Positions 2,638-38,572 are shown, counted from the stretch's first letter. The stretch is DNA of 56,040 nt from a virus (IMGVR_UViG_3300032269_000733:1-56040), one strand, 5' to 3'. Notes: generated by a model not told the origin, from the letters alone. Numbers and translations are program-made.

Positions 2638-4563
2638 ATGTCAAATTATTACTCAACCAGTCTAGGTTTAATCCTACAAAATGCGGGTGAAAACTCCACC
2701 ACTTGGGGTAGTTTTGTTAATACAAACTTTCAGACTTTACTTGAACAAGCGATTGTTGGTCAAACTACGGTTGCAATGACAAATGCCGATTACACGCTAA
2801 CTTCTGCACAAGGTGTTAGTAACGAGGCAAGAAATGCAGTATTAATTATTACAGGAAACCAAAACGCTACATACAACGTTATTGTTCCAGCAGTGCCTAA
2901 GTTGTATATAATCACAAACAACTTAAACAGTTCAGCAACGGCATACTTTAAAGTAACAGGAAGTAGTACATCATTCTCGGTTGCTAACGGCAATACGGTT
3001 ATAGTTTACTGTACAGGATCTAACGTAGGAACGGCTTTCTATGCGGTTAACTATGTAGCTAATGCTACAACTGCCGCTACGGCTAATGCTCTAAACGCAA
3101 GTAATTCTTATTCAATAAATGGGTTATCAAGTTCAGGAGATGTAACTGTTTATAGATCATCAGCCGTAACTACAGGTGCTATTTACCTTGGCAATACTGG
3201 AAGCAGATATCTTTACTACAATGGAAGTAATTATAATTTAAATGGTGCTGACCTTTATGTTAACAGTTCATTAGCTGTAACTAATAATGGAGGTACATAC
3301 GCTATTAATATTTCTGGTACCGCAACAACTGCAACAACTGCAAATGCGTTAAATTCAGCTAACAACTATACAGTAAATAATTTAGCAGCAAATGGTTACG
3401 GTCGTTTTACAGGTGATGTTGTTGCCTCAATAACTACGGGTAATTTATATGTTGGTAATACATCATCAAATTATGCTATATATAATTACCTTGGCTATTT
3501 AGCATTAAATGGTGGATTACCATATAAAATTGTAACAAGCGATGGCGGAACTTATGGAATAAACATATCAGGCAATGCCGCAACTGCTAGTTCTGCAAAT
3601 GCTTTAAATACTAGCAATTCTTACACTGTTGCATCGTTAAATGTAAGTGGGGCAGCAAACGTAGCAATTAGTTCTGGTGATTTGCAAATCGGTAATTTAG
3701 CATCACAATGGGTAGCATTAAGATATAACGGCACAATGTCTATAAATAATGGTACTTACTATCAAATTGTTAGGTCTGATGGTGGTTCTTACAACATTAA
3801 CATTGGTGGCAATGCAGGTTCAGCCACCTTTGCTGGTTATGCAAATGCTTTAAACACAAGTAATGCATATCAGTGTTCTGGTATGACGATTACTGGGCAA
3901 TTAATACAGCAAAGTGATGCGTTTTTAGGATATTCGGCAGATGCTTATGTTCATATTTCTTCTTCAGGAAGTATAGGAAGAATTGATGCGGTAAATGGGG
4001 CAAACACTACATCTCGTTGGTTGGGTATCGGCAATATAAGTCCGCTATTAATTGGCAACGTAGCAGGTCCTGCTTATGGTGCATCTGTTACTGTAGGTAA
4101 TGGAAATGGTAGTGGTGGTATTTGGTGTTTTGCTGGTAATAGCTTGGGTCAACAAGGTTGGGCTATAGTCAATACCGATGGTCGTATGGGTGGCATGACT
4201 GTTGGAAATTCGTATATACAAGTAATTCTTGATGGGGTTGCGTATAGCATAGCTGTTAGCCCATCTGATGAATCATTAAAGAAAAATATTGAACCATCTA
4301 CATATAATGCTTTAGACACAATTGATAAGATTCAATTTAAGTCTTTTGACTATGATAAAGAAAAAACTTTCAGAGATGACCATATTAAATGCGGTTTAAC
4401 TTCACAACAAATACAAACAATTGATTCAGATTTAGTAAGACAAGTTGGTGATTTATTACAACCAGATGAAAATAAATTGCTCATGGTAGCAATGAAAGCA
4501 ATTCAAGAACTTAAAGCAGAGGTAGATTTTTTAAAAACTGAACTTGCTGCGTTGAAAGGTTAA
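2638..4563 (+). CDS. Second tail fibre with C-terminal intramolecular chaperone domain
   Basis: GENSTTWG N-terminal anchor; repeated GGTY.INISG.A.TA..ANALN units; SDESLKKNI...MKAIQEL C-terminus. Confidence 0.88.
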   Translation: MSNYYSTSLGLILQNAGENSTTWGSFVNTNFQTLLEQAIVGQTTVAMTNADYTLTSAQGVSNEARNAVLIITGNQNATYNVIVPAVPKLYIITNNLNSSATAYFKVTGSSTSFSVANGNTVIVYCTGSNVGTAFYAVNYVANATTAATANALNASNSYSINGLSSSGDVTVYRSSAVTTGAIYLGNTGSRYLYYNGSNYNLNGADLYVNSSLAVTNNGGTYAINISGTATTATTANALNSANNYTVNNLAANGYGRFTGDVVASITTGNLYVGNTSSNYAIYNYLGYLALNGGLPYKIVTSDGGTYGINISGNAATASSANALNTSNSYTVASLNVSGAANVAISSGDLQIGNLASQWVALRYNGTMSINNGTYYQIVRSDGGSYNINIGGNAGSATFAGYANALNTSNAYQCSGMTITGQLIQQSDAFLGYSADAYVHISSSGSIGRIDAVNGANTTSRWLGIGNISPLLIGNVAGPAYGASVTVGNGNGSGGIWCFAGNSLGQQGWAIVNTDGRMGGMTVGNSYIQVILDGVAYSIAVSPSDESLKKNIEPSTYNALDTIDKIQFKSFDYDKEKTFRDDHIKCGLTSQQIQTIDSDLVRQVGDLLQPDENKLLMVAMKAIQELKAEVDFLKTELAALKG

Positions 4564-14333: not shown

Positions 14334-17300
14334 ATGCCAATTCATGAAGTAGAAACCCCTGACGGAAGCATCATGAGAGTTGAGGCACCTGAAGGTGCTT
14401 CACAAGATGCTATTCTTGCTTTTGCTTCGCAAAATTATCAACCAAAAGAATTAAAAGAAAGTCCTGAATCAGGTGGTATTGCCGCTGCAAAAGCATCTGT
14501 ACGAGACATTATTGGTCAAGGTGCTCTTACTCTAGGCAGGGTTGGTTTAATGAACCCTGAAGAAGCACAGCTTCGATATGAAAAAGAAAAACAACGATCA
14601 GCAGAGATATTCAAACCCACGGAAGGAACTTTCTTCCAATCGCCACTAGCTAAGACTAGTGAATTACTTGGTGGTTCTTTGCCCTATATGGCGGCTCCTT
14701 TGGTCGGTGCTGCAGTGGCAAATCCTTTGGGCGCAGGTCTTATTGGCGCAGGCGCTGTATCCGCAGGACAGTTTGTCGGTTCAAACTTAGCACGTCAATT
14801 GGACGAAGGAAAAAAGGAAGGTAAAACTCTTGCTGATACTAGTCTGACATCCGCAGTAGCTGCATCCATCCCACAAGCGTTGCTTGATACCTACGCACTC
14901 AAAATGACTCCATTAATTCGTGGAGTCTTTGGTAAAGCAGGACAAGAGATTACCGAAAAAACCGCACAAGAAATTGCCAAGAAAGGTATTCTTGGAACCA
15001 TTACAGATGTAGGCTTAACCGCTAACCGAGAAGGTATTACTGAGGCAGGACAGCAAGTCTTGGAGCGTTTACAAGCTGGTTTAAACATTGCAGACGAAGA
15101 AGCTCGCAAAGAATATTTTGATAGTTATGTTGGTGGCGCTGTACTCGGTGGAGTCTTAGGCGCAGGTGGTCACTTTATAGAAAAGACCATGCAGAACAAG
15201 CCAGAGAATGAATATGATTCTTTGATGACTAGTCTGCGCACACATTTTGATACAGCATCTGACGTGCCTATGACTGATGTTGTTGGTAAAATTTCCGAAC
15301 TAACGGGCGAAAAAGACTTAAACAAAATACAAAACTTCCTTGGTGGCGCAGAACAGTTAGGGCATTTAGAAACAGTTCCAAACGAAGATAACACTTTATC
15401 CATCAAGTTTAAACAGCCTACACCAATTGAGCAGGCAGACGACTTACAGAAGAACGCCAATCCTGACATTTATAGACCTGAGGTGTTTGAAAGCCATGCC
15501 GAGTTATATAAAGCCATCGTTCCTAAGTTAAAGAAGTTTGGCTTAGAAAATGTCGGTGTTAAGATCATGGACAGTATTGAAAATGGTAGAGCTGATGGTT
15601 TATGGGCTAACAAGGTTATTCATTTAGCCATGGATTCACCCAATCCAATAGGTACTATGCGCCATGAGTCAGTTCATGCCTTAAGACAACTAGGTGGATT
15701 TAAACCAAATGAGTGGACAGTTTTAACCAATAAAGCTAAAGATGAGTGGGTAGATAAGTTCATTAAGAAGGCAGATTTGTATGACCAGTACAAAGACCAG
15801 TATGTTAAAGATAATGGTAATTTAACTGGCTTTGATGATTATATCCACGAAGAAGCGATTGCTGAAGCGTTTAAACACTTTGACCAAACCAAGCCACCAG
15901 CAGGACTAGTTGGCAACATCTATCAACGACTAAAACAATTTTTTGAAACGATCCGCAATGGATTTGAAGGCAATGGATTTAACACTGCCGATAGTATATT
16001 TAGGAGCCTAGACGAAGGTAAACGTGCTCCTGTACAATTAAAAAAAGGAGAAATAAATGAACAATCAAAATACAACCTTGCCCAATACGATGAAGAAGGA
16101 CGACCTGTACAAGCAACTCCAATCAATGGAGCCGAAGCAGGAGAATTTCCAAGACGAGGAGAGTTACTTGGAGGCGAGGGACGCATTCCGCAACCGAGCA
16201 GGGTTCTTGCTCCGACCCAAAGCCTAGATAATAATCCACCACCTGTTACCATACCAAGTCTTGGTCAGGTATCTTTTGGAGCACATCCTCAAGCAAGACA
16301 AGTAGCTCAAGAATATATGGCTAATAAGCCTTATTTTCCTGCTACATCTTATGTTAAGGTAGATCCTGAGCAAGCAAAACGTGTTGCGGATGCTTACGAA
16401 AACATGAAGGATGATCCAACTAATCCTCAGGTTAAAGCGTCATACGATGCAATGATTAAAGAAACTTTAGACCAATGGCAAGCCATTAAAAAAACAGGTT
16501 TAAAGGTAGAGTTTATGCAAGAAGGAATGGATGACCCTTATGCCGAGTCTCCACGACTTGCCATTCTTGATGCAGTTAACAACAATCACCTATGGGTATT
16601 CCCAACTGATTTTGGGTACGGTGAGGGCAATGTAATGGATGAGAAAAACAATCCATTATTAGCCTATACTGATGAAATTATTAGTGGCAAACGAGCAAGA
16701 GCAAATGATATCTTTCGTATTGTTCATGATTACTTTGGACACATTAAAGATGGTGTAGGATTTAGAGCAGATGGTGAAGAGAATGCGTGGCGTTCTCATG
16801 TTCAAATGTATTCACCACTAGCAAGAAATGCAATGACTATTGAGACTCGTGGACAAAATTCATGGGTTAATTTTGGACCGTATGCCGAATTTAATAAAAC
16901 CGCTAGTGCGGTGGATACTAAATACGCACCACAAAAAATTGGTTTGCTTCCTGAAGAATTTGTGTATAGTGGCTCACCTTTTGAAACAGACCACAACATA
17001 GGAGAAGAAGATGCAAAAAAATATAGCTTCAAAAACAAAGAATTACGACCCACGGAAAATGCCGTTCGACCTAGCGGTGGAGGCGGTGAAGGAATCTCTC
17101 TCAACCCAAGGCAAGCAAATGCGCAAACCTATGTCGGGCACCACTACAGCAAGGGTGAAAGGCAATATCTAGACGGTAGTAAGTATGGATCTCTAGATGG
17201 TATTGCAGGACAAGAGCAAAGACGTTTACAGTATTCCAACGATCCACGGATTAAAAAACGTGTATATTTCTACATTCCTCATTCAGAACTTGATGGTAAA

Positions 17301-20300
17301 TATTTACCTCCTGAACAAGGTCTTGGGTCGTTTAAACACGTACAAACATTTAATAATATCTTAGGTCCTGGACCTGAGATGTCTCGGATTTATGAGCAGT
17401 CAGGTGCAACCTCCAATGATATGAATCCGTTTGAATCTGCGGTGGTTGATGCAGGCTATGATGGCTATGCTGCTCCTCGTATGGGTATGATGGTTATCCT
17501 TAACCATGACAACATTCCTGTAAGTTTTGGTAAATACGCTATTCGTGCACCATTACAAAATGCATTTGATTATGCAAGAGGTAAGGACTTTAAAACCAAT
17601 CGAGATTTAAAAGTTGACTTGCAAAAAATAGCTTTACAAAAAAACCAACAAGCAAAAATAAACATTGAAAACTTTGATAATAAAACCATTGAGTATCTTT
17701 CTAACCTTGGGGTTGCAGACGCATTGCATGCCATAAAAACAAATGAAAATGCAGTTGGGTGGTATGACGTTACCGTTGCCAAAGCATTAAACATTATTTC
17801 TTTATTGCATCCTGAAATTAAAACAGACCCTGACGCTAAATTTGCATTTACATGGGCATTGGCTGTTACCTCCAACGGCATAAAAGTTGATAAGAACTTT
17901 GAATTGGCAGAACAAGCTTACAATTATTATAAAAATAATGGCGTAATGCCTACAGATATTCAAGCAGGTGAATCACAAAAAGGAATCAATAACGGATTAA
18001 AAACATTTAATGAGATGGTTGCTAAGTATGGTATAGACAATACTAGAAAGTTTATGGCAACTGAATTTACTCCAAAAGAAATTGAAAATTTAACAGGGTT
18101 AAAAATTCTTGGAGAAAACGTAGGCACAAAACTTTTGGGTGCGTCTATTATTGGACCTAAAATTGGCAATGGATTCTATAGTAACCTAAACGGCATCTTT
18201 GATAAGCTGACGATGGACAGATGGCTCATGAGAACATGGGGTCGTTGGACAGGCACATTGATTGAAAATAATGTTGCACAAACTAAAGCAAGCAAAACTC
18301 TTGTTGACACTTTGTTAAGACAGATGGTAAACGACAAAGAAACAAAAAAGAATTTTGAACAAGTTTTAAAAAAATCAATTACTAAAACAGAAGTTAAAAC
18401 TGAAGAAGGTAGAGCATTGTTAGCAAAAAACATTGCTAAATCTACTGTAAAATCCGCAAACAGGGATGTTTTTAACCGAACCACATTAGGTGAAAATTTA
18501 AGAAAAGCATCAAACAATTTAGCAAAGTACCTTGACGGTCAAAAAGAAGCGCCAAAAACAGGTACAGAAAGAAATCAAATACGTGCCGTGTTTAATTCGA
18601 TGCTAAAAAAATTACAGGCTCGTGGTTACAATGATTTAACTATGGCTGATTTACAAGCCTTGTTATGGTATCCTGAAAGACGTTTGTACGATGTTGCAAA
18701 AGAAAGCGATACAAATGAAGGTTATGATGACAGTGAAGCACCTGATTATGCAAACGCAGCGGCTAAATTAGTTAAAGAAAATGGAGTTTCAGAAACACAA
18801 ATTAACCAAGTTATTAAACAAACGGAGAATCAATATGTTAACAGAGCAAGAGGAGTTCAACCAAATGCGGGAAATAACACCCCTCAAACTAGCACCCAAG
18901 GAAAGACTAGAGGCTTTACTGAAGAAGAAAGAGCAAAATTCTCAGAACAATATGCTCCTCCAAAACCAGAAAAAGCTCCAAGGGTAAAAAAAGAAAAGTA
19001 TTCATTACGAGCCCCCAACACTCCTGCGTTTAGAGCGTGGTTTAAGGGCAGTAAAGTTGTAGATGAAGATGGTAAACCATTGATCGTTTATCATGGAACA
19101 GCAGGGGATGCATTTGATGTATTTGATAAAAATAAAATTAGATTAATGGATTATGATGCGCCATTTAATGGATTTTGGTTCTCATCGGATAAGGCTACAT
19201 CTCCAGCAATGCGTGATGCAAAAAATGTAATCTCTGTTTATCTGAGTATAAAAAATCCCGCACCAAGCAATGTATGGAAAAAAGTATCTAGAGAGGTTTA
19301 TTCTGACCAAAACATACGCAAAGAATCGAGGTCTGATAATGATGAGGTAAGACATAGATTGCAAGACATGGGATATGATGGAATTAAGTTTTCTGGAAAG
19401 CCAGATATAAACGCTAATGAATTAAATGAAAAGGGCTACACATCATTTAAAGATGTTTCAGGAAAATCTTACACTTTAGCTAAAAATAAAGAAGACGGTG
19501 GATTAGATTTATACGATGGCAAAACCGATGGTTTTCCGAATCCGCAAACAGAAGAATACATTACTGGATATTCAAATCTTCAAGAATATTTAAATACTGA
19601 AAAACATGAAACTTGGGTTACCTTTGAGCCTAACCAAATTAAATCAGTATTTAATCAAGCACCAACCGAATCCAACGACATTCGTTATTCTTTAAAAGCT
19701 CCTAACACTCCTGCGTTTAAACGTTGGTTTGGTAACAGCAAAATAGTTAATACTGATGGCACACCAAAAGTGATGTACCACGGTACTGCACAAGATATAT
19801 TTGAGTTTAGACCTAAGCAAGCCAATGCTATATTTGTAACTGACAATCCAAGATTTGCAGAAGGTTTTTCAGATTTAAGTTCTAATTACATGGTAAATGA
19901 AATTGAAAAAAATTTACCTAAAGATAAAAAGGAAAAACTATATAGACAAGCAAAACAAATTGCAAAAAAAGAAGAAACTGATTTTATTGATGAATATAAC
20001 AATCTTATAAAAAATGAATTGCCATCAGCGCAAAACATAATTCCTGTATTTGTTCGTTCTGAAAAACCGTTTGATTATGAAAATAAACAAGATAAAGAAA
20101 AATTATGGAATTCATTAAATGATGATGAAGCATCAGCAATTTATCGTTTGTATTTAGATAAAGATGAATATTCAAAAGATTTGGTTTCTGATTTAAATAG
20201 TGGAAGTTGGAAATTAATTGAATCACATCCAATGCAACATGCAATTAAAAAAGCAGGATTTGATGGATTTTATATTAGGGAAGGTGGTAACAAAAACTTA

Positions 20301-23300
20301 GCAGTATATGAACCATCACAGTTAAAATCTGCCACAGGTAATCAAGGTACATTTGACATCACTAGCCCTGATATCCGTTATGCACTACGTGCATCTAAAA
20401 CACCTGCGTTCCAAAAATGGTTTGGTGACAGCGTTGTTATTAATGAACAAGGTGAACCTCAGATTGTTTACACGGGCACATCAAAAGACAAAGACTTTAC
20501 ATCATTTAATGTTCCTAAAAATGGCACATGGTTTACCACCAATCCTGAAATGGCATCATCTTATGCCTCTCAAAATGATAGTCAAGGATATAAAAGAGAT
20601 GAAAGTGAAGGTGCAAAACCTTGGGATATTGTTGCAACCAATACTGCATCAAGAGTTATACCTGCGTTCTTAAAAATTGAAAATCCATTCAAAATGACAG
20701 ATGAGCTTTTTAAAGAACATCTTGGCGGGAGTGGCAGTTACAAAAGAAAACAAGCAAATTATTTTGAAACGTTAAAATATCAAGGATATGATGGTATTGA
20801 TATGGGTGATGGAATTTGGGTTGTATTAAAAAATCCAAACCAAATTAAAACTGCGTTTAACATGAATCCTACTGAAAAGAAGGACATGCGTTATTCCATA
20901 TATCCTGGACCTCGTTTAACTAAAATAGAAGCACCAAAGAGTACAGTCAATGTAGTTAAAGACACTGCCTCAGAGGTATGGGATAACATTCATGACAATA
21001 ATTATCTCACTCAAAATCGTATAGCATGGGTAGACCGAGTGTCAGGATTAACTCAGGCATTACAAAAACTGCCACAGTTTGACATGAACGGTAAACTACG
21101 TGCCGATCTATTAATACGTGCCAAGTTTCAAACAATTAATTTTATTAAAAACGCCATTCAATCAGGCATTCCAATCCTTAATGCTGACGGAACTTTGGGT
21201 GTTGAACGCAGCGAAAACAACTTAGCTCGCAGCTTAATCCTTGCTGATGAACTAGACTCAAAGTTTAAACAATTTGGATTCACAGGTAGAAGCGGTGTAG
21301 CAGAGGTTGCTCGTATCCTGCGTGGTGAAGAGATTATGAAGGAAGATGCGGTTGAGCGTGCCAAGGGCGATGCTTTGGTAAAACAAGCAAACGCTCATTT
21401 AAAAATGGCATCAGATCTTAAAAATTTACATAAGTTTGAACTTGAGTACGCTAAAAAATTAACCAAAGAAGCTAAAGTCTTATACAACGCAGGCAAACTA
21501 AGAGAAGGTAATCTTAAGGCAAGCGAAGCAAGACGCATCTATGAGACTAATTTTTACAGGGAAATACTCAAAGAAACAAAAGAAGCAAGAAAATTAATGA
21601 ATGAGGGTAAACCCTTACAAAAAGTTTTTAGAGAATTTCAAGTTACAGATGCCAAAATTAAATGGGCAAACAATATACTTAAGCAAATTCCTGAAACAGA
21701 AAATGTCCTTAGCATATGGCGGAACGTCAATCGTGGCTTAATTGATTTATGGGTTGAAACAGGCATATTAGATGAGCAAACAGCATCAAAATACAAAGCA
21801 CGTGATCGGTATGTTCCGCTGTTTAAATCAAGAGAAGACTTGGATGCAGAAGGTTTATACAACTCCACAGGCACAGGAACAAAGTCTACTGCCAAGATAA
21901 AAACATTAAAAGGTGCAATGATAGACCGCAACATTTGGGAGAACATGGATAAGCATTTTGCCAAAATGGTTGCCCAAGCGTATGAAAATCAAACACGCAG
22001 AGTCGGTGTTGATCAACTAAAATATTTTGGCTTGGCTACTATAACAAAGGACAGAACAAAAGCTAATTTATTCTTCAAAGAAAATGGCAAAGAAGTCATG
22101 GCAATAGTGGAAAACCCTAATGACCTTGCCGCTTTCCAAGCAATGACATATGAGATTAGCCCTATCATGAAAATGTTTGTGCCGATGACAAAAGTGCTTA
22201 GAACAGGCGCTTTGCTCAATCCTATGTATTGGATTAAGCAATTGATTCGTGACCCAATACACGCTTCTTTGGTGGCTAATAGCGGTATTGTTACACCGTT
22301 TCATTCCATGGTGGAGTTTGCTAGAGTGATTGCTAAGAATTCTGAGGAAGCTAAAATTCTTGCAGATCGAGGTGTCATTGGTGCGGTAGATAACACGTTG
22401 ACAATCAATGAGTTTTTAAAACAAGTTGGCAAGGAAAAGACAAATCCCCATGCACTTGCAGGAGCGTTGCATAAAATCATGGAAATTCACGAGGCATCCG
22501 ATGCGGCGACTCGTGTAGCCATTTACAAGAAGGCATTTGCAGAAGGCATGAAAAAGTTTGGTGACAAACAAAAAGCCACAGACTATGCAGTGTTTAAAGC
22601 ACGTGAGTCGATTAACTTCTCAGTACATGGTAACTCCCCAATATTGCAACAGCTTCGAGCAACCATTCCGTTCTTCTCAGCAGCTATTACATCTTTGGAT
22701 ACGGTTTACCGAGCTGCTACAGGTTACGGTTTAAACGCTGATGAAAAAGCACAAGCCAGAAGAATCTTTGCTTCTCGTGCAGCAATGATGGTAATGTTAT
22801 CCACTGTTTATGCAATGATGTATCAAGATGATGATCAGTATAAAAAATTACCTGATTATGTTAAAGACGACAATTGGTTAATCCCTACTCCTGACGGCAA
22901 AACATTTATTAAGATTCCAACACCATTTGAGGTTGGCTTCTTATTTAAAACCATTCCTGAGGGTGCAGTCAGATACATGGCAGGCACAAGCACAGGCAAA
23001 GAATTAATGGCATCGTATTACGGTGGCTTGCTTAAAAATTTACCTGCAAATGGCATACCTATTCCACAGGCAGTAAAACCTATTTTAGAAACAATTACCA
23101 ATCATTCTTTCTTTACAGGCAATCCAATTGAAGGCATGAGCGATCAGGGTTTACCTGTATCCATGCGTGGTCAAAGAGCATCAGAATTTTCTAAGATGCT
23201 TAGTCGTTTGGGATTGGATGGCATTGGTTTATCCCCTGCCAAGATTGACAATTTGTTCCAAGGATACTTTGCTGAATTAGGTACCTTATCTACAGGTATG

Positions 23301-23729
23301 GCAAGTAGTTTGGTCAATTTAGCAGAAGGCAGAGAACCTCCCGCATCGAATATTCAAAATCTACCATTTATGAAATCATTCCTGACAGATCCAAATGTAA
23401 GCAAAGCTGTGTCTGATTTTTATAGCCTTCAAGCAAATGCTAAACAAATGGCAGATGCCGTCAACAGATTCAAGGGCGAGGGTAACATTGAAGGCATTAA
23501 GGATATTCTTAATGATGAAGAGAAAAAGAAAGCATATGCATCTGCTGCGCCACTGCGTAAGATTGGTGAAGAAATGACAAAGATACGCAAAGCTATTAAT
23601 TTCTACAAGCAAACTCAAGATATAGATCCCGAAGAACGCAGAAGAAAAATCAATGAATTAACGCAGATATACAACAAGATTGCAGAAAGTGGTTACACCG
23701 TTGCTGATGCTATTGGGGTGGTTCGTTAA
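14334..23729 (+). CDS. Giant polyvalent ejection protein: HExxH metallopeptidase, cargo modules incl. ADP-ribosyltransferase-like repeats, LPD38-like C-terminus
   Basis: 3131 aa; RHESVH...EEAIAEAF; three TPAF..WF..S..V...G.P...Y[HT]GT...G[YF]DG repeats; LPDYVKDDNWLIP...IKIPTPFEVG near C-terminus. Confidence 0.85.
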   Translation: MPIHEVETPDGSIMRVEAPEGASQDAILAFASQNYQPKELKESPESGGIAAAKASVRDIIGQGALTLGRVGLMNPEEAQLRYEKEKQRSAEIFKPTEGTFFQSPLAKTSELLGGSLPYMAAPLVGAAVANPLGAGLIGAGAVSAGQFVGSNLARQLDEGKKEGKTLADTSLTSAVAASIPQALLDTYALKMTPLIRGVFGKAGQEITEKTAQEIAKKGILGTITDVGLTANREGITEAGQQVLERLQAGLNIADEEARKEYFDSYVGGAVLGGVLGAGGHFIEKTMQNKPENEYDSLMTSLRTHFDTASDVPMTDVVGKISELTGEKDLNKIQNFLGGAEQLGHLETVPNEDNTLSIKFKQPTPIEQADDLQKNANPDIYRPEVFESHAELYKAIVPKLKKFGLENVGVKIMDSIENGRADGLWANKVIHLAMDSPNPIGTMRHESVHALRQLGGFKPNEWTVLTNKAKDEWVDKFIKKADLYDQYKDQYVKDNGNLTGFDDYIHEEAIAEAFKHFDQTKPPAGLVGNIYQRLKQFFETIRNGFEGNGFNTADSIFRSLDEGKRAPVQLKKGEINEQSKYNLAQYDEEGRPVQATPINGAEAGEFPRRGELLGGEGRIPQPSRVLAPTQSLDNNPPPVTIPSLGQVSFGAHPQARQVAQEYMANKPYFPATSYVKVDPEQAKRVADAYENMKDDPTNPQVKASYDAMIKETLDQWQAIKKTGLKVEFMQEGMDDPYAESPRLAILDAVNNNHLWVFPTDFGYGEGNVMDEKNNPLLAYTDEIISGKRARANDIFRIVHDYFGHIKDGVGFRADGEENAWRSHVQMYSPLARNAMTIETRGQNSWVNFGPYAEFNKTASAVDTKYAPQKIGLLPEEFVYSGSPFETDHNIGEEDAKKYSFKNKELRPTENAVRPSGGGGEGISLNPRQANAQTYVGHHYSKGERQYLDGSKYGSLDGIAGQEQRRLQYSNDPRIKKRVYFYIPHSELDGKYLPPEQGLGSFKHVQTFNNILGPGPEMSRIYEQSGATSNDMNPFESAVVDAGYDGYAAPRMGMMVILNHDNIPVSFGKYAIRAPLQNAFDYARGKDFKTNRDLKVDLQKIALQKNQQAKINIENFDNKTIEYLSNLGVADALHAIKTNENAVGWYDVTVAKALNIISLLHPEIKTDPDAKFAFTWALAVTSNGIKVDKNFELAEQAYNYYKNNGVMPTDIQAGESQKGINNGLKTFNEMVAKYGIDNTRKFMATEFTPKEIENLTGLKILGENVGTKLLGASIIGPKIGNGFYSNLNGIFDKLTMDRWLMRTWGRWTGTLIENNVAQTKASKTLVDTLLRQMVNDKETKKNFEQVLKKSITKTEVKTEEGRALLAKNIAKSTVKSANRDVFNRTTLGENLRKASNNLAKYLDGQKEAPKTGTERNQIRAVFNSMLKKLQARGYNDLTMADLQALLWYPERRLYDVAKESDTNEGYDDSEAPDYANAAAKLVKENGVSETQINQVIKQTENQYVNRARGVQPNAGNNTPQTSTQGKTRGFTEEERAKFSEQYAPPKPEKAPRVKKEKYSLRAPNTPAFRAWFKGSKVVDEDGKPLIVYHGTAGDAFDVFDKNKIRLMDYDAPFNGFWFSSDKATSPAMRDAKNVISVYLSIKNPAPSNVWKKVSREVYSDQNIRKESRSDNDEVRHRLQDMGYDGIKFSGKPDINANELNEKGYTSFKDVSGKSYTLAKNKEDGGLDLYDGKTDGFPNPQTEEYITGYSNLQEYLNTEKHETWVTFEPNQIKSVFNQAPTESNDIRYSLKAPNTPAFKRWFGNSKIVNTDGTPKVMYHGTAQDIFEFRPKQANAIFVTDNPRFAEGFSDLSSNYMVNEIEKNLPKDKKEKLYRQAKQIAKKEETDFIDEYNNLIKNELPSAQNIIPVFVRSEKPFDYENKQDKEKLWNSLNDDEASAIYRLYLDKDEYSKDLVSDLNSGSWKLIESHPMQHAIKKAGFDGFYIREGGNKNLAVYEPSQLKSATGNQGTFDITSPDIRYALRASKTPAFQKWFGDSVVINEQGEPQIVYTGTSKDKDFTSFNVPKNGTWFTTNPEMASSYASQNDSQGYKRDESEGAKPWDIVATNTASRVIPAFLKIENPFKMTDELFKEHLGGSGSYKRKQANYFETLKYQGYDGIDMGDGIWVVLKNPNQIKTAFNMNPTEKKDMRYSIYPGPRLTKIEAPKSTVNVVKDTASEVWDNIHDNNYLTQNRIAWVDRVSGLTQALQKLPQFDMNGKLRADLLIRAKFQTINFIKNAIQSGIPILNADGTLGVERSENNLARSLILADELDSKFKQFGFTGRSGVAEVARILRGEEIMKEDAVERAKGDALVKQANAHLKMASDLKNLHKFELEYAKKLTKEAKVLYNAGKLREGNLKASEARRIYETNFYREILKETKEARKLMNEGKPLQKVFREFQVTDAKIKWANNILKQIPETENVLSIWRNVNRGLIDLWVETGILDEQTASKYKARDRYVPLFKSREDLDAEGLYNSTGTGTKSTAKIKTLKGAMIDRNIWENMDKHFAKMVAQAYENQTRRVGVDQLKYFGLATITKDRTKANLFFKENGKEVMAIVENPNDLAAFQAMTYEISPIMKMFVPMTKVLRTGALLNPMYWIKQLIRDPIHASLVANSGIVTPFHSMVEFARVIAKNSEEAKILADRGVIGAVDNTLTINEFLKQVGKEKTNPHALAGALHKIMEIHEASDAATRVAIYKKAFAEGMKKFGDKQKATDYAVFKARESINFSVHGNSPILQQLRATIPFFSAAITSLDTVYRAATGYGLNADEKAQARRIFASRAAMMVMLSTVYAMMYQDDDQYKKLPDYVKDDNWLIPTPDGKTFIKIPTPFEVGFLFKTIPEGAVRYMAGTSTGKELMASYYGGLLKNLPANGIPIPQAVKPILETITNHSFFTGNPIEGMSDQGLPVSMRGQRASEFSKMLSRLGLDGIGLSPAKIDNLFQGYFAELGTLSTGMASSLVNLAEGREPPASNIQNLPFMKSFLTDPNVSKAVSDFYSLQANAKQMADAVNRFKGEGNIEGIKDILNDEEKKKAYASAAPLRKIGEEMTKIRKAINFYKQTQDIDPEERRRKINELTQIYNKIAESGYTVADAIGVVR

Positions 23730-35407: not shown

Positions 35408-36208
35408 TTATTTAATTGCGTTTAACATCGTTGTAAATGATTGAGATGCCATCTCACTCAAGTCGTTAATAACTACTGCATGCTTGTAAGTCTTGCGCAC
35501 ACCATCTGCCTGTATGCCAACACCTATCAAGGTAATACCCAACTTCGTTGCAACCTCATCCAAGTACCTCATGTGGGTAACGTTAACACTACCTGAGTCC
35601 GTAAGAAAGAACAATACCTTGCGCTTCTCAGGGCGCTTGGCGAGGTCTTCGATGGATAAGAGCAAGCCCTGATAATCAGGGTTGCCACGAAATGCACAGT
35701 TCTCTATCGCACCAAGTTTCGGTATTGCTTTTTGCAATGTCTCTCCCCAATGTTTAAACGCATAGAAGCGAACATCTTCAGGTATGTATAAACTACCATC
35801 GGGTAACTCTTGCGTGTCCGACTCATGCTCTGAGTCAAAGCCAAAGACTCTGTATGAGACGTCTGCTTTGTCAAACACCTTGACCAATTGAATCACTGCC
35901 GATGCAGTCAACCTCATGCGAGCGCCCATTGAACCTGAGCAGTCAACAAGTATTGATACTGCCGACTTGTGTGCTTCCTTGTAGTCACGATGACTGAACA
36001 CTTGCGTACTGCCACAAGCCATGCGACTGAAAGCCTTACGGTCTAATTTGCCTGACTCTTCATAGTGCGACCACCCAACCAAGTCATTGGCACGTAGCAA
36101 ACGTAAGAGACTTGCACGTGTTGCACCAAAGCCTGAGGGTGTTGCATCGAACTTAGCCTTGAAACTATCTGTCGCTTCACTTCTATTGATTGTTAATTTT
36201 CTTTTCAT
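35408..36208 (-). CDS. vWA domain protein (CobT C-terminal-like)
   Basis: SGKLD, MIDAS ILVDCSGSM, FFLTD, GVGI; GGAG SD before ATG 36208. Confidence 0.88.
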   Translation of the reverse strand: MKRKLTINRSEATDSFKAKFDATPSGFGATRASLLRLLRANDLVGWSHYEESGKLDRKAFSRMACGSTQVFSHRDYKEAHKSAVSILVDCSGSMGARMRLTASAVIQLVKVFDKADVSYRVFGFDSEHESDTQELPDGSLYIPEDVRFYAFKHWGETLQKAIPKLGAIENCAFRGNPDYQGLLLSIEDLAKRPEKRKVLFFLTDSGSVNVTHMRYLDEVATKLGITLIGVGIQADGVRKTYKHAVVINDLSEMASQSFTTMLNAIK

Positions 36209-36218
36209 GATGACTCCA

Positions 36219-37139
36219 TTAAACAATATTAAATTCAAACAACTGCTCTGAGTTGAGAACAGGTCTATAACTTCTTTTATCAGCGCCACACTTCAAAGGC
36301 TTTGCTTCCTCATCAATGTAGTCGTTGATCTCAGGGTCACGAGGGTCTGTGCCATCGTCTTTCATCTTGCCCTTGTCTTCACCATCAGCACCACTAGGCT
36401 TACCATCGCCCTCGCTCTCGCTCTCGCCCTCGTCATCGCCTGATTCTTCACCACCCTTGCCACCATCCTTGCCCTCTTCCTCAGGCTCTTCAACACTTCC
36501 CTCTTCATCATCATCAAAGAGTCGCTTGTACAACTCAAGCGCAACCTCAGCGATGCGCATTGTGTTGAGTGCTTTGTGTGCTTCATCAAGCGCCCAACGA
36601 ATATGCTCCTCAAAGGGTGAACCTGTAATCAAATCAGGGATGTCGATTACATAACCGTTTAAACGTCTACCCTCAACGCATAGGATGAATGGTAGCGATT
36701 GCTTGGTCAACTCATCAGGAAAGCCACCCTTGACAAGCACGTTGTTGATAAGCGAATTAAACAGGTCAGCACTGTTGGGTGCATAGCCCGACTCAATTAC
36801 CTTACGCTCAATGCGTGGGTCTTCAAGAGCATTGATGAGTGTACCAACGTACTTGCCATGTTCACGAGCAGTGTCATGCCATGGTGCGTTGTTGGTGAAC
36901 CATACATGACCCAACTCATGCAAGATATAAGCAATCAAGTCATTGAATAATTTCTTGCTCACCTCTTTTGTTTCGTCAATCGCTGGCAACACGATGATTG
37001 CAGTACCTGAGTCATCGAATGTTACCTTGGCAGTCGCACCATGCCAAAGCATTTTGAATGTAGAGAACTTGCGACCACTTGATTGAAACACTTTCTGTGT
37101 GGCTGATTCGATGCCACGCTTTGCATTGATTGCTAACAT
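36219..37139 (-). CDS. CobT N-terminal-like zincin-motif protein with acidic tail
   Basis: LHELGH..FT, NALEDPRIE, long D/E/G-rich linker. Confidence 0.8.
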   Translation of the reverse strand: MLAINAKRGIESATQKVFQSSGRKFSTFKMLWHGATAKVTFDDSGTAIIVLPAIDETKEVSKKLFNDLIAYILHELGHVWFTNNAPWHDTAREHGKYVGTLINALEDPRIERKVIESGYAPNSADLFNSLINNVLVKGGFPDELTKQSLPFILCVEGRRLNGYVIDIPDLITGSPFEEHIRWALDEAHKALNTMRIAEVALELYKRLFDDDEEGSVEEPEEEGKDGGKGGEESGDDEGESESEGDGKPSGADGEDKGKMKDDGTDPRDPEINDYIDEEAKPLKCGADKRSYRPVLNSEQLFEFNIV

Positions 37140-37147
37140 ACAACCTC

Positions 37148-38572
37148 CTAGATATAAGATTTTAATTTGGATACATCAATCATCGCAGTGTAGATAGCAA
37201 GTAACTCTGCGTGACAATCCTCAGGGTAACTGCGAATGATTGCATTGGTGAAAGCCAACTGCACAGGTAAGCCACTCTTCACACCGATAGCCCAAGCCTG
37301 TAACGAGCGCAGACTAGGTGGCTGAGTCAACACACCACTTGCAACTTTCTGTCTAGCACTGTTAGCAAACTGCACCATTGCACGTGCAACTTCTTTGTGA
37401 ATGCCAATACGATTGGCAAGTAGTTTAGTTTCATCATCAGCATTGAGATACTCGAACTTCAACTTGAAACCAAACCTGTCGAGCAATGCAGTATTCATCT
37501 CACGTGTGCCATGAAATGAACCTGATGAGTCACCATAGCCGAGCGTATTGTCAGCGACAAAGAACACGACATCTCTCTTGACAGAAATTTTCTTGCCTGT
37601 CTCTGCGATGTTTAAACCACGATTAGGATTAGGCTCAACGATGGAGTGCAGTGTTGCCAATGCGTTAGGTCTTGCGAATGACAACTCATCAAGCAATACG
37701 ATTGCACCACTGTGTTGGATAGCCTTGGTAAGAATACCCTCCCTCCAAAATACAGTCCCATCTTTCACTGAGTCACCACCAATAAACTCAGCACGCTCCA
37801 TCGCTTCATCAAAGTTAATACGGTACAACTTGCGACCCAAGCGATTAGCCAACTGCGTGACGAACTCGGTCTTGCCTGTTGATCTCTCACCACCAAGCCA
37901 CGTGTTGATTGGAATGTTAGGTGCATGCAGTGCGATGAGTGCTGAGTGCAAATGTTGAGGGTTAAACACGTAGTCATCCAAGCAAGTAGGCGCATCATCT
38001 TTGTAGACAAAGACATCCATGTTGCTAAAGTCCACGTTCTCAGTGCCAAAGGTGTAAGAAAGTTTTTGACCCTTGAATACGTCTTTCACTTTCATTACTG
38101 ATGTGGCAACAGGCAATGAATCAGCAATCGCAGTCATCTCCTCAGGTGAGTGCGCAGTCTTGAATGAATCAAACAACTTAGCAACCTCGTGACGAATCGT
38201 TGTAGGGTCACTAGCACTACGAGACTCAGCCACGAGACAGATGCGCTCATCAAGTGATGCAACCTCAGTGAGCGCAGTATTGGTGCTTTCAAGCGCAGTG
38301 CTTAACTTCGCAGTCAACTCATCGACAGTGCGTTGTAATGCAACGATGTCACCACCACTGCTAGTGACAGGCTTAGGCGCTCTCACTGCTCCATCGTAAG
38401 GTGATGCCAACTTAACATCATCAACAGTAATGTGACCATTTGCAACAAGCAAGACAACATCATCTAGCGCTCTCGTCTTGACCGACTGAGGTGGCATACC
38501 ACATTGAACAAGCGCACCGTTTAAGCGTGCAAGGGATGTGAACTGCAATAAAGATTTAATTTCATGTGACAT
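37148..38572 (-). CDS. MoxR/CobS/CbbQ-type AAA+ ATPase
   Basis: Walker A GERSTGKT, Walker B LLDEL, N.ALLDRF arginine finger, S.R sensor; N-terminal coiled coil. Confidence 0.92.
   Translation of the reverse strand: MSHEIKSLLQFTSLARLNGALVQCGMPPQSVKTRALDDVVLLVANGHITVDDVKLASPYDGAVRAPKPVTSSGGDIVALQRTVDELTAKLSTALESTNTALTEVASLDERICLVAESRSASDPTTIRHEVAKLFDSFKTAHSPEEMTAIADSLPVATSVMKVKDVFKGQKLSYTFGTENVDFSNMDVFVYKDDAPTCLDDYVFNPQHLHSALIALHAPNIPINTWLGGERSTGKTEFVTQLANRLGRKLYRINFDEAMERAEFIGGDSVKDGTVFWREGILTKAIQHSGAIVLLDELSFARPNALATLHSIVEPNPNRGLNIAETGKKISVKRDVVFFVADNTLGYGDSSGSFHGTREMNTALLDRFGFKLKFEYLNADDETKLLANRIGIHKEVARAMVQFANSARQKVASGVLTQPPSLRSLQAWAIGVKSGLPVQLAFTNAIIRSYPEDCHAELLAIYTAMIDVSKLKSYI

Follow-up and report, generated by a model that had tools for sequence, protein, structure and literature searches.

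Results

A giant polyvalent protein with a recurrent four-residue motif

The DNA stretch analysed here (the window; IMGVR_UViG_3300032269_000733) is a whole, podovirus-like viral contig of 56,040 bases. According to the open reading frame (ORF) list and the translation, the plus-strand ORF at 14334–23729 encodes a giant protein, P0001, in which one short motif recurs at the borders between domains (Table 1). Comparison of P0001 with its relatives confirmed that this motif, [KR]-[YF]-S-[LIF] in its improved form, is a real and strongly selected junction signal of a large uncultured family. Judged from its sequence, P0001 belongs to the phage-type polyvalent proteins as defined by Iyer et al (2017), because the Pfam domains ART-PolyVal (PF18760; 175.1 bits versus a cut-off of 31.2, in four stretches) and LPD38 (PF18857; 131.3 bits versus a cut-off of 27) were both found. 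NCBIfam and PADLOC returned no family for P0001 or its modules.

Table 1. Features of the P0001 gene and its product, in window coordinates (aa, amino acids; pLDDT, predicted local distance difference test; HSP, high-scoring segment pair in BLAST comparisons with relatives; model residues are those of AlphaFold2 models of P0001 parts)
Feature	Position	Strand	Remarks
Giant polyvalent/ejection protein gene (P0001)	14334..23729	+	3,131 aa; Pfam ART-PolyVal 1.7e-51, LPD38 6e-38
N-terminal scaffold region, conserved, aa 1-300	14334..15233	+	kept across relatives; phrog_6958 'virion structural protein' 3.8e-07
HExxH domain, candidate metallopeptidase, aa 379-558	15468..16007	+	HESVH 15663-15677; invariant E506/E507 at 15849-15854
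Junction motif 1, KYNL, aa 579-582	16068..16079	+	model residues 220-223, in pLDDT<50; HSP ends: 59 in bin 561-580, 36 in next bin
Module 2, aa 583-895	16080..17018	+	core ~aa 631-891 common to other phage giants; phrog_3170 4.5e-15
Junction motif 2, KYSF, aa 896-899	17019..17030	+	model residues 537-540, in pLDDT<50 segment 479-550; HSP starts and ends in bin 881-900
Module 3, aa 900-1066, ART/RES-toxin-like fold	17031..17531	+	predicted fold
Junction motif 3, KYAI, aa 1067-1070	17532..17543	+	first residues past folded module 3; pLDDT<50 from model residue 708; 18 HSP starts, 19 ends
Module 4, aa 1071-1554, DUF7178-like	17544..18995	+	language-model features 0.94-0.96 to DUF7178-bearing viral clusters of 385-478 aa
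Junction motif 4, KYSL, aa 1555-1558	18996..19007	+	model residues 26-29; pLDDT<50 segment 12-28 covers first three; 63 HSP starts in bin
ART-PolyVal domain 1, aa 1559-1783	19008..19682	+	Pfam best stretch 1577-1778
Junction motif 5, RYSL, aa 1784-1787	19683..19694	+	model residues 255-258; pLDDT<50 segment 246-257 covers first three; 74 HSP starts, 33 ends
ART-PolyVal domain 2, aa 1788-2014	19695..20375	+	Pfam; pLDDT 75-97 except one block at 62
Junction motif 6, RYAL, aa 2015-2018	20376..20387	+	model residues 486-489; pLDDT<50 segment 487-491; 55 HSP starts, 42 ends
ART-PolyVal domain 3, aa 2019-2185	20388..20888	+	Pfam stretches; mixed-confidence model
Junction motif 7, RYSI, aa 2186-2189	20889..20900	+	model residues 657-660, inside pLDDT<50 segment 647-675
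C-terminal scaffold module, conserved, aa 2190-3131	20901..23729	+	LPD38 aa 2833-3008; most invariant columns here

The first-pass annotation had described the gene product as an ejection protein in which an HESVH motif (aa 444–448) precedes seven [KR]Y[SAN][LIF] tetrapeptides that delimit six cargo modules. Its coordinates are all correct, as are the spacings of 317, 171, 488, 229, 231, and 171 aa and the RAP or KAP found after three of the sites. From composition, 0.57 matches to the pattern would be expected in P0001 instead of seven, and none of 5,000 shuffles of the protein reached this number (the maximum was 5). Because the pattern was picked post hoc, and because three of the copies head tandem ART repeats, the figure for P0001 alone is weaker than it suggests. 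Widening the pattern to [KR][YF][SAN][LIFM] added only KFAF at aa 1169, within module 4, which is probably a chance occurrence.

The motif is shared by a family of mosaic giants

A word-indexed search returned 745 relatives of 1,722–5,480 aa, the best 120 of which were analysed; all of these are mosaic giants. In the 120 relatives and P0001 taken together, the first-pass pattern occurred 243 times (50.6 expected), and its Y-type matches stood in 198 distinct contexts, which dereplication at 40% flank identity reduced to 73. The pattern as first proposed is enriched family-wide, but it had missed phenylalanine at position 2 and had included asparagine, which occurs at chance level, at position 3. 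When each position was scanned separately, position 1 was K or R only (for xYSL, K 89 and R 60 versus 3.6 and 2.2 expected), position 2 was Y (149) or F (103 versus 7.4 expected), and position 3 was predominantly S (149 versus 5.7), with A at a modest excess (20 versus 11) and N at none (5 versus 5.7). Position 4 was L (149), I (30), or F (24). The improved consensus reads [KR]-[YF]-S-[LIF], and in some proteins position 2 is Leu. The F-type sites (137, in 42 dereplicated contexts) share their contexts with the Y-type sites.

The family set of 256 proteins includes 135 new representatives at 50% identity, which come from those listed among 2867 matches of the HExxH domain. It contains 558 [KR][YF]S[LIF] sites, and the 135 representatives hold 218 versus 28.3 expected. 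An identical core is found next to unrelated neighbours: "...PDI RYSL" is followed by RAPxTPEFK (an ART domain), NRLTTLQ (the C-terminal module), REFKMSDLPE, TNAPP, or ALGNIDPTTF. At the junction preceding the C-terminal module, the relaxed motif lay within 60 aa in 95 of 115 proteins (chance rate 0.10) and the strict one in 51 of 115 (0.049); the misses that were printed are mostly near-variants such as ILYSL, ISYSL, KTYAL, and PKFQL. Downstream of the HExxH domain, 105 of 254 proteins carry the relaxed motif, and many others read ARFSKPD. In one protein, P0165, all five junction sites are [KR]LS[VI] and there is no Y/F site at all, and another, P0170, has five Leu-type sites; in these two, site and reader have possibly changed together.

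The motif marks module boundaries, lies in linkers, and is selected as protein

The HSP ends of relatives heap up in all seven motif bins of P0001, which bears out the claim that the motif delimits modules; other clear breakpoints lie at ∼aa 281–400 and 2321–2420. In an all-against-all comparison, the proportion of HSP ends lying no more than 12 aa from a motif was 0.078, versus 0.009 for random positions, and none of 200 random draws was as high. Two AlphaFold2 models of parts of P0001, computed from alignments of relatives on viral contigs, place all seven sites in, or at the edge of, low-pLDDT linkers. KYNL, KYSF, and RYSI lie entirely within segments of pLDDT <50, and KYSL, RYSL, and RYAL overlap such segments at domain edges. 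The first-pass annotation had proposed structure models as a check of the linker placement, and no site was found buried in a confidently predicted domain. In 194 dereplicated contexts, the flanks of the motif were more polar than random windows (0.625 versus 0.541; Mann–Whitney p ∼7e-42) and less hydrophobic (0.214 versus 0.289).

Equal frequency of the motif outside the boundaries would have spoken against the claim as well. In 121 proteins, the N-terminal region, the HExxH domain, and the C-terminal module together hold one motif where 12.2 are expected, whereas the cargo region holds 339 versus 17.7 expected, a 19-fold enrichment. Motifs follow one another either at <30 aa (14 tandem pairs) or at ≥100 aa, and no distance falls between 30 and 100 aa. 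The remaining 71 ORFs of the window show no enrichment (three relaxed motifs versus 3.2 expected).

As a further possibility, it had been suggested that the motif is a recombination junction for module swapping. For a codon test, an alignment-based scan of viral contigs yielded 65 loci, and 65 genes (that of the window and those at 64 loci) were used. They contain 148 [KR][YF][SA][LIF] sites in 124 distinct DNA contexts, encoded by 100 different 12-mers. Codon usage at the motif is near background: AGY and TCN for Ser, CTN and TTR for Leu, and AGR and CGN for Arg are all used. Because synonymous codons vary freely at the motif, selection acts on the protein and not on a recombination signal in the DNA, and at this level the suggestion finds no support.

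The HExxH domain is a candidate enzyme

The HExxH domain is present in 254 of the 256 family proteins, and H444, E445, H448, Y486, E506, and E507 are invariant in 38 aligned rows. At E ≤ 1e-3, its family comprises 2867 representative proteins, 1762 of which also match at E ≤ 1e-10. The stretches containing HExxH and E506/E507 are both predicted to be helical with pLDDT >90, and E506 or E507 would presumably be the zinc ligand. The first motif site follows, in several rows, ∼20 aa past the last helix of the domain. When the 38 members were scanned at E ≤ 10, only Tox-MPTase2 was retrieved, in 4 of the 38 and with a best E of 0.03. A local hidden Markov model of the domain gave marginal alignments at HExxH- or EE-like stretches of 11 other polyvalent giants, none exceeding 7 bits. 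A sequence-profile search of the PDB with aa 360–1100 returned de novo helical proteins only, which were taken as spurious.

Complex prediction for the HExxH domain and a 40-aa linker (aa 1766–1805) scored 0.32, classed as "weak support", whereas the best of three controls scored 0.00. The mark used for docking is passed by 58 of 80 solved complexes and by 2 of 110 mismatched pairs; 7 of the 80 and both mismatches pass at 0.60 or below, the range in which this score lies. The docking runs agreed in at least 64% of contacts, with a partner pLDDT of at least 40. A preference for hydrophobic residues at S1′ is common in zincins, and the basic/large-hydrophobic/small/aliphatic pattern of the motif suits it.

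Among the LPD38 giants of cultured phages, five have a domain of another kind, with HExxxH, and contain no motif. HExxxH is a variant active-site form according to the main text of Iyer et al (2017; PMC5512222). These giants belong to Vibrio phages D274 and 1.232.O, Escherichia phage Pondi, Achromobacter phage CF418P1, and Aeromonas phage phiARM81mr, and they make up five of the six LPD38 giants lacking HExxH; the giant of Bacillus phage Page has neither HExxH nor HExxxH. With their variant active-site string, the five do not count as controls lacking a peptidase. A de novo search with a reduced alphabet for a clade-specific junction motif in the five HExxxH-type giants gave nothing convincing, the method being a weak one. 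On the tree of the HExxH domain, proteins without the motif cluster (9 changes versus 21–24 in the ten shuffles printed of 200), a pattern that relatedness alone can produce.

Cargo modules and scaffold

Beyond the entries of Table 1, several modules of P0001 can be related to other phage proteins. Module 2, with a folded core at aa 694–839 predicted at moderate pLDDT, showed 51% identity in tblastn with a "large polyvalent protein" of Planktothrix phage Pag-Yong1 and also matched other phages. Pfam DUF7178 is present in relatives of P0001, and the Pfam scan of module 4 in P0001 itself gave no family match; stand-alone viral protein clusters of 385–478 aa resemble this module, which apparently also exists as a separate gene. 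In ART-PolyVal domain 1, Foldseek found weak ART-family matches and chain B of the cyanophage A4 pre-ejectosome (probability 0.97, E 3.5e-3). An H-G-T stretch at aa 1816–1818, which may be the start of a catalytic motif, is nearly invariant among relatives. The C-terminal module reached 152 phage records in tblastn at ∼23–27% identity, and megablast of the whole gene against phages gave zero matches. Gly/Ala-rich hydrophobic stretches in the N-terminal region (aa 100–155 and 262–285, read off the translation) are as expected of a membrane-inserting ejection protein.

Genomic setting

The window encodes a terminase, a portal, a Mu-gpT-like capsid protein, an SU10-type adaptor, and tail fibres with S74 chaperone domains, and a replication and recombination block lies on the opposite strand. 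The P0001 gene is the last of three large genes downstream of the structural genes. It is preceded by a 573-aa ORF and, immediately upstream, by a 766-aa ORF with a Glucosaminidase domain. Genes for podovirus ejection proteins usually lie here; the P0001 gene closes a run of ejection-type genes on a podovirus-like contig, in agreement with its first-pass description as an ejection protein. Two tail-fibre ORFs (673–1335 and 2638–4563, plus strand) end in Peptidase_S74 intramolecular-chaperone domains. These are the sole curated peptidase-named domains found in the window; the capsid gene also matches capsid-fusion PHROGs with peptidase names. Genes for a CobT-like VWA protein and an AAA_5/CbbQ_C (CobS-like) protein are adjacent at 35408–38572 (minus strand), a pair that is common in aquatic phages.

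Discussion

A self-processing polyprotein as the preferred explanation

The explanation that we favour is that P0001 is a virion-packaged, injected "polyvalent" polyprotein. Its conserved N- and C-terminal scaffold regions bracket the HExxH domain and six swappable cargo modules, namely one module without assigned function, one ART/RES-like, one DUF7178-like, and three ART-PolyVal modules. [KR]-[YF]-S-[LIF] stands in a disordered linker at each module boundary, where protein-level selection maintains it. The protein's own HExxH domain, presumably a divergent zincin-type metallopeptidase, would recognise the motif and cut there, either while still packaged or once the protein has been ejected into the host, and thereby release separate effectors. 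That the motif is cleaved by a protease of whatever origin seems to us somewhat on the probable side. That it is the cleavage site of the in-cis HExxH domain, releasing effectors, is a serious though tentative proposal, in which the cut itself, the enzyme, the bond, and the timing are all inferred.

Several points weigh against this proposal. The AlphaFold2 model of the HExxH domain is confident (pLDDT 80–98) but all-helical, without the canonical zincin β-sheet. The domain has no match in Pfam or NCBIfam (E ≤ 0.1) or among PDB sequences, and no zincin is found among its Foldseek and VIA-align matches, for which the query was a 741-residue multidomain model. Because these searches recognise no peptidase, the "MPTase" label given to the domain at first pass is an inference from the HExxH motif and the invariant EE. 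Moreover, of the 135 representatives, which carry the domain, 40 lack the motif; P0122 (4,460 aa), with four HExxH motifs and four stretches matching the domain profile, has no junction motif of any recognisable variant. The use of Y or F within a protein is not concerted (agreement 0.517 versus 0.517 after shuffling), so that, one all-Leu protein excepted, there is no signal of covariation between enzyme and site. AlphaFold2 left the adjacent KYNL tail undocked on the domain, and neither megablast nor tblastn found a cultured phage carrying this HExxH domain in the phage collection. Finally, precedents exist for packaging without processing. The main text of Iyer et al (2017; PMC5512222) presents N4 vRNAP, ArdC, and TraC1 as packaged or delivered unprocessed, and the capsid model of cyanophage A4 gp27, in the text available of PMC12002296, includes an N-terminal segment (Ser114–Pro154) as well as Cys1715.

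Other readings of the motif

The motif could instead be a non-proteolytic linear motif that organises or threads a beads-on-a-string protein, either by docking to the portal, the pre-ejectosome core, a packaging chaperone, or a host factor, or by modification of its Ser (phosphorylation or ADP-ribosylation). We regard this as unlikely, though worth keeping in mind. A basic/aromatic/Ser/aliphatic core with a nearly invariant Ser is typical of such sites, too, and the motif lies in disordered linkers. In cyanophage A4, moreover, a large ART-like ejection protein is part of an ordered pre-ejectosome, according to the available text on that phage. A similar string can also belong to a folded unit: LPD23, a 58-aa Pfam domain, begins at x[YF]SFAG in three other polyvalent proteins, those of F116 (gp60), USP18 (gp31), and plasmid pPME5. 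However, tandem sites 11–13 aa apart and the near-absence of the motif from the scaffold suit cut sites better, and no docking partner has been identified. Self-ADP-ribosylation cannot be general either, as members without a Pfam-annotated ART domain (for example, P0011 and P0060) still carry the motif.

With regard to LPD23, its start (aa 37–45 of F116 gp60, aa 1510–1520 of USP18, and aa 1619–1628 of pPME5) lies ∼144 aa ahead of an HExxH with a weak match to DUF6782, a "putative metallopeptidase". A related aromatic-Ser string may accordingly be tied to a peptidase unit in another clade.

It is rather improbable, in our view, that the motif is cut by a protease other than the HExxH domain, whether phage-encoded (a prohead or maturation protease) or a host enzyme of the envelope or cytoplasm, with the HExxH domain acting elsewhere, for example, on host targets. 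The motif would be an exposed, selected linker signal in this case as well, the HExxH domain is not demonstrably a peptidase, and the carriers of the domain that have no motif would be accommodated. Jumbo phages do mature ejection proteins by a prohead protease at a consensus site (SPN3US; available text of PMC10052503 and PMC5694885). No prohead-protease family was detected, however, among 45 window ORFs with Pfam or 18 with PHROGs, several ORFs of the head region being unannotated, and the other proteins of the window are not enriched in the motif. Host proteolysis would leave the lack of the motif in the HExxxH-type LPD38 giants unexplained.

That the motif is a by-product of module shuffling (the remnant of a recombination joint) or a structural cap (the first or last strand of a module) is the least credible of these readings: the motif does coincide with homology breakpoints, 157 of the 558 sites directly follow D[IVM], the tail of ART-PolyVal domains, and the ART tail "NPDI RFSF" recurs in plasmid pPME5, but the codons are unconserved, 12 nt are too short for homologous exchange, the other 401 sites come after unrelated modules, and the sites lie outside the Pfam ART boundaries in low-pLDDT segments.

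Two further mechanisms were set aside. Self-cleavage by a Ser nucleophile, as in Nup98, is at odds with the tolerance of Ala at position 3 and with flanks that are disordered and unrelated, and the motif is unlike 2A sequences that cause a translational skip.

Meaning of the motif and comparison with known systems

Self-processing of polyvalent proteins is itself already a known proposal (2017), and the new, directly testable element is the site motif. With four residues recurring at nearly every cargo boundary in hundreds of proteins, that proposal can be tested directly, and the motif provides a sequence rule for splitting giant phage proteins into effector modules, several of which are without a known family. 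Should the HExxH domain be the enzyme, it would define a large peptidase family, so far unclassified, whose substrate motif is already known. Even if nothing cuts there, the motif remains a linear signal under strong selection in injected proteins, with a reader yet to be found.

The polyvalent proteins of Iyer et al (2017) are, like P0001, giant and multidomain, occur in a virion context, and combine ART-PolyVal, LPD38, and HExxH domains. According to the main text of that paper (PMC5512222), it was proposed that MPTases autoprocess such proteins into functional units before, during, or after delivery. No processing site is named in the passages searched, whereas the P0001 family has a defined junction motif. 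The HExxH domain of P0001 matches no Pfam metallopeptidase model above threshold. A literature search for the four commonest motif tetrapeptides together with "polyvalent protein" returned nothing relevant, and no paper describing the site motif was found.

In jumbo phages of the SPN3US type (PMC10052503 and PMC5694885, in the text available), packaged and ejected proteins are matured by a separate prohead protease acting on many proteins; the P0001-type motif, in contrast, is confined to one protein of the window, and no prohead protease family was detected there. Two large ejection proteins seen in virions can also be compared. Cyanophage A4 gp27 (PMC12002296) is a podovirus giant located in the capsid and proposed to be ejected, and it is the best Foldseek match of the ART region of P0001. 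Phi24B gp47 (bioRxiv 10.64898/2026.04.10.717836) shares LPD38, has another metallopeptidase domain, is found in virions, and is likewise proposed to be ejected. In the text consulted of these two papers, no internal processing is reported.

The arrangement is also reminiscent of viral polyproteins, such as those processed by picornavirus 3C or potyvirus NIa, in which one ORF has a short motif at every junction and an internal protease, the latter being a candidate only in P0001. The viruses in question have RNA genomes, and cleavage by their chymotrypsin-like proteases is proven, whereas P0001 belongs to a tailed double-stranded DNA phage, its HExxH domain is a candidate, and its cleavage is a proposal.

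MARTX toxins of Vibrio and relatives have conserved delivery ends and central, swappable effectors, and an in-cis protease cuts the linkers between effectors at a site that is short and simple. Unlike P0001, they are toxins that bacteria secrete, and their inositol-phosphate-activated cysteine protease cuts next to Leu. The P0001 family resembles them in its conserved ends, its swappable central modules, and its in-cis candidate protease, a likeness for which no homology is claimed. It is conceivable, if somewhat doubtful, that the ejection polyproteins of uncultured podoviruses constitute a MARTX-like mode of phage delivery, in which a mostly helical, unclassified HExxH peptidase would cut the linkers and, inside the host, free a shuffled set of effectors (ART, RES-like, and others). 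Sequence alone could then reveal the module boundaries of these proteins and their cargo repertoires.

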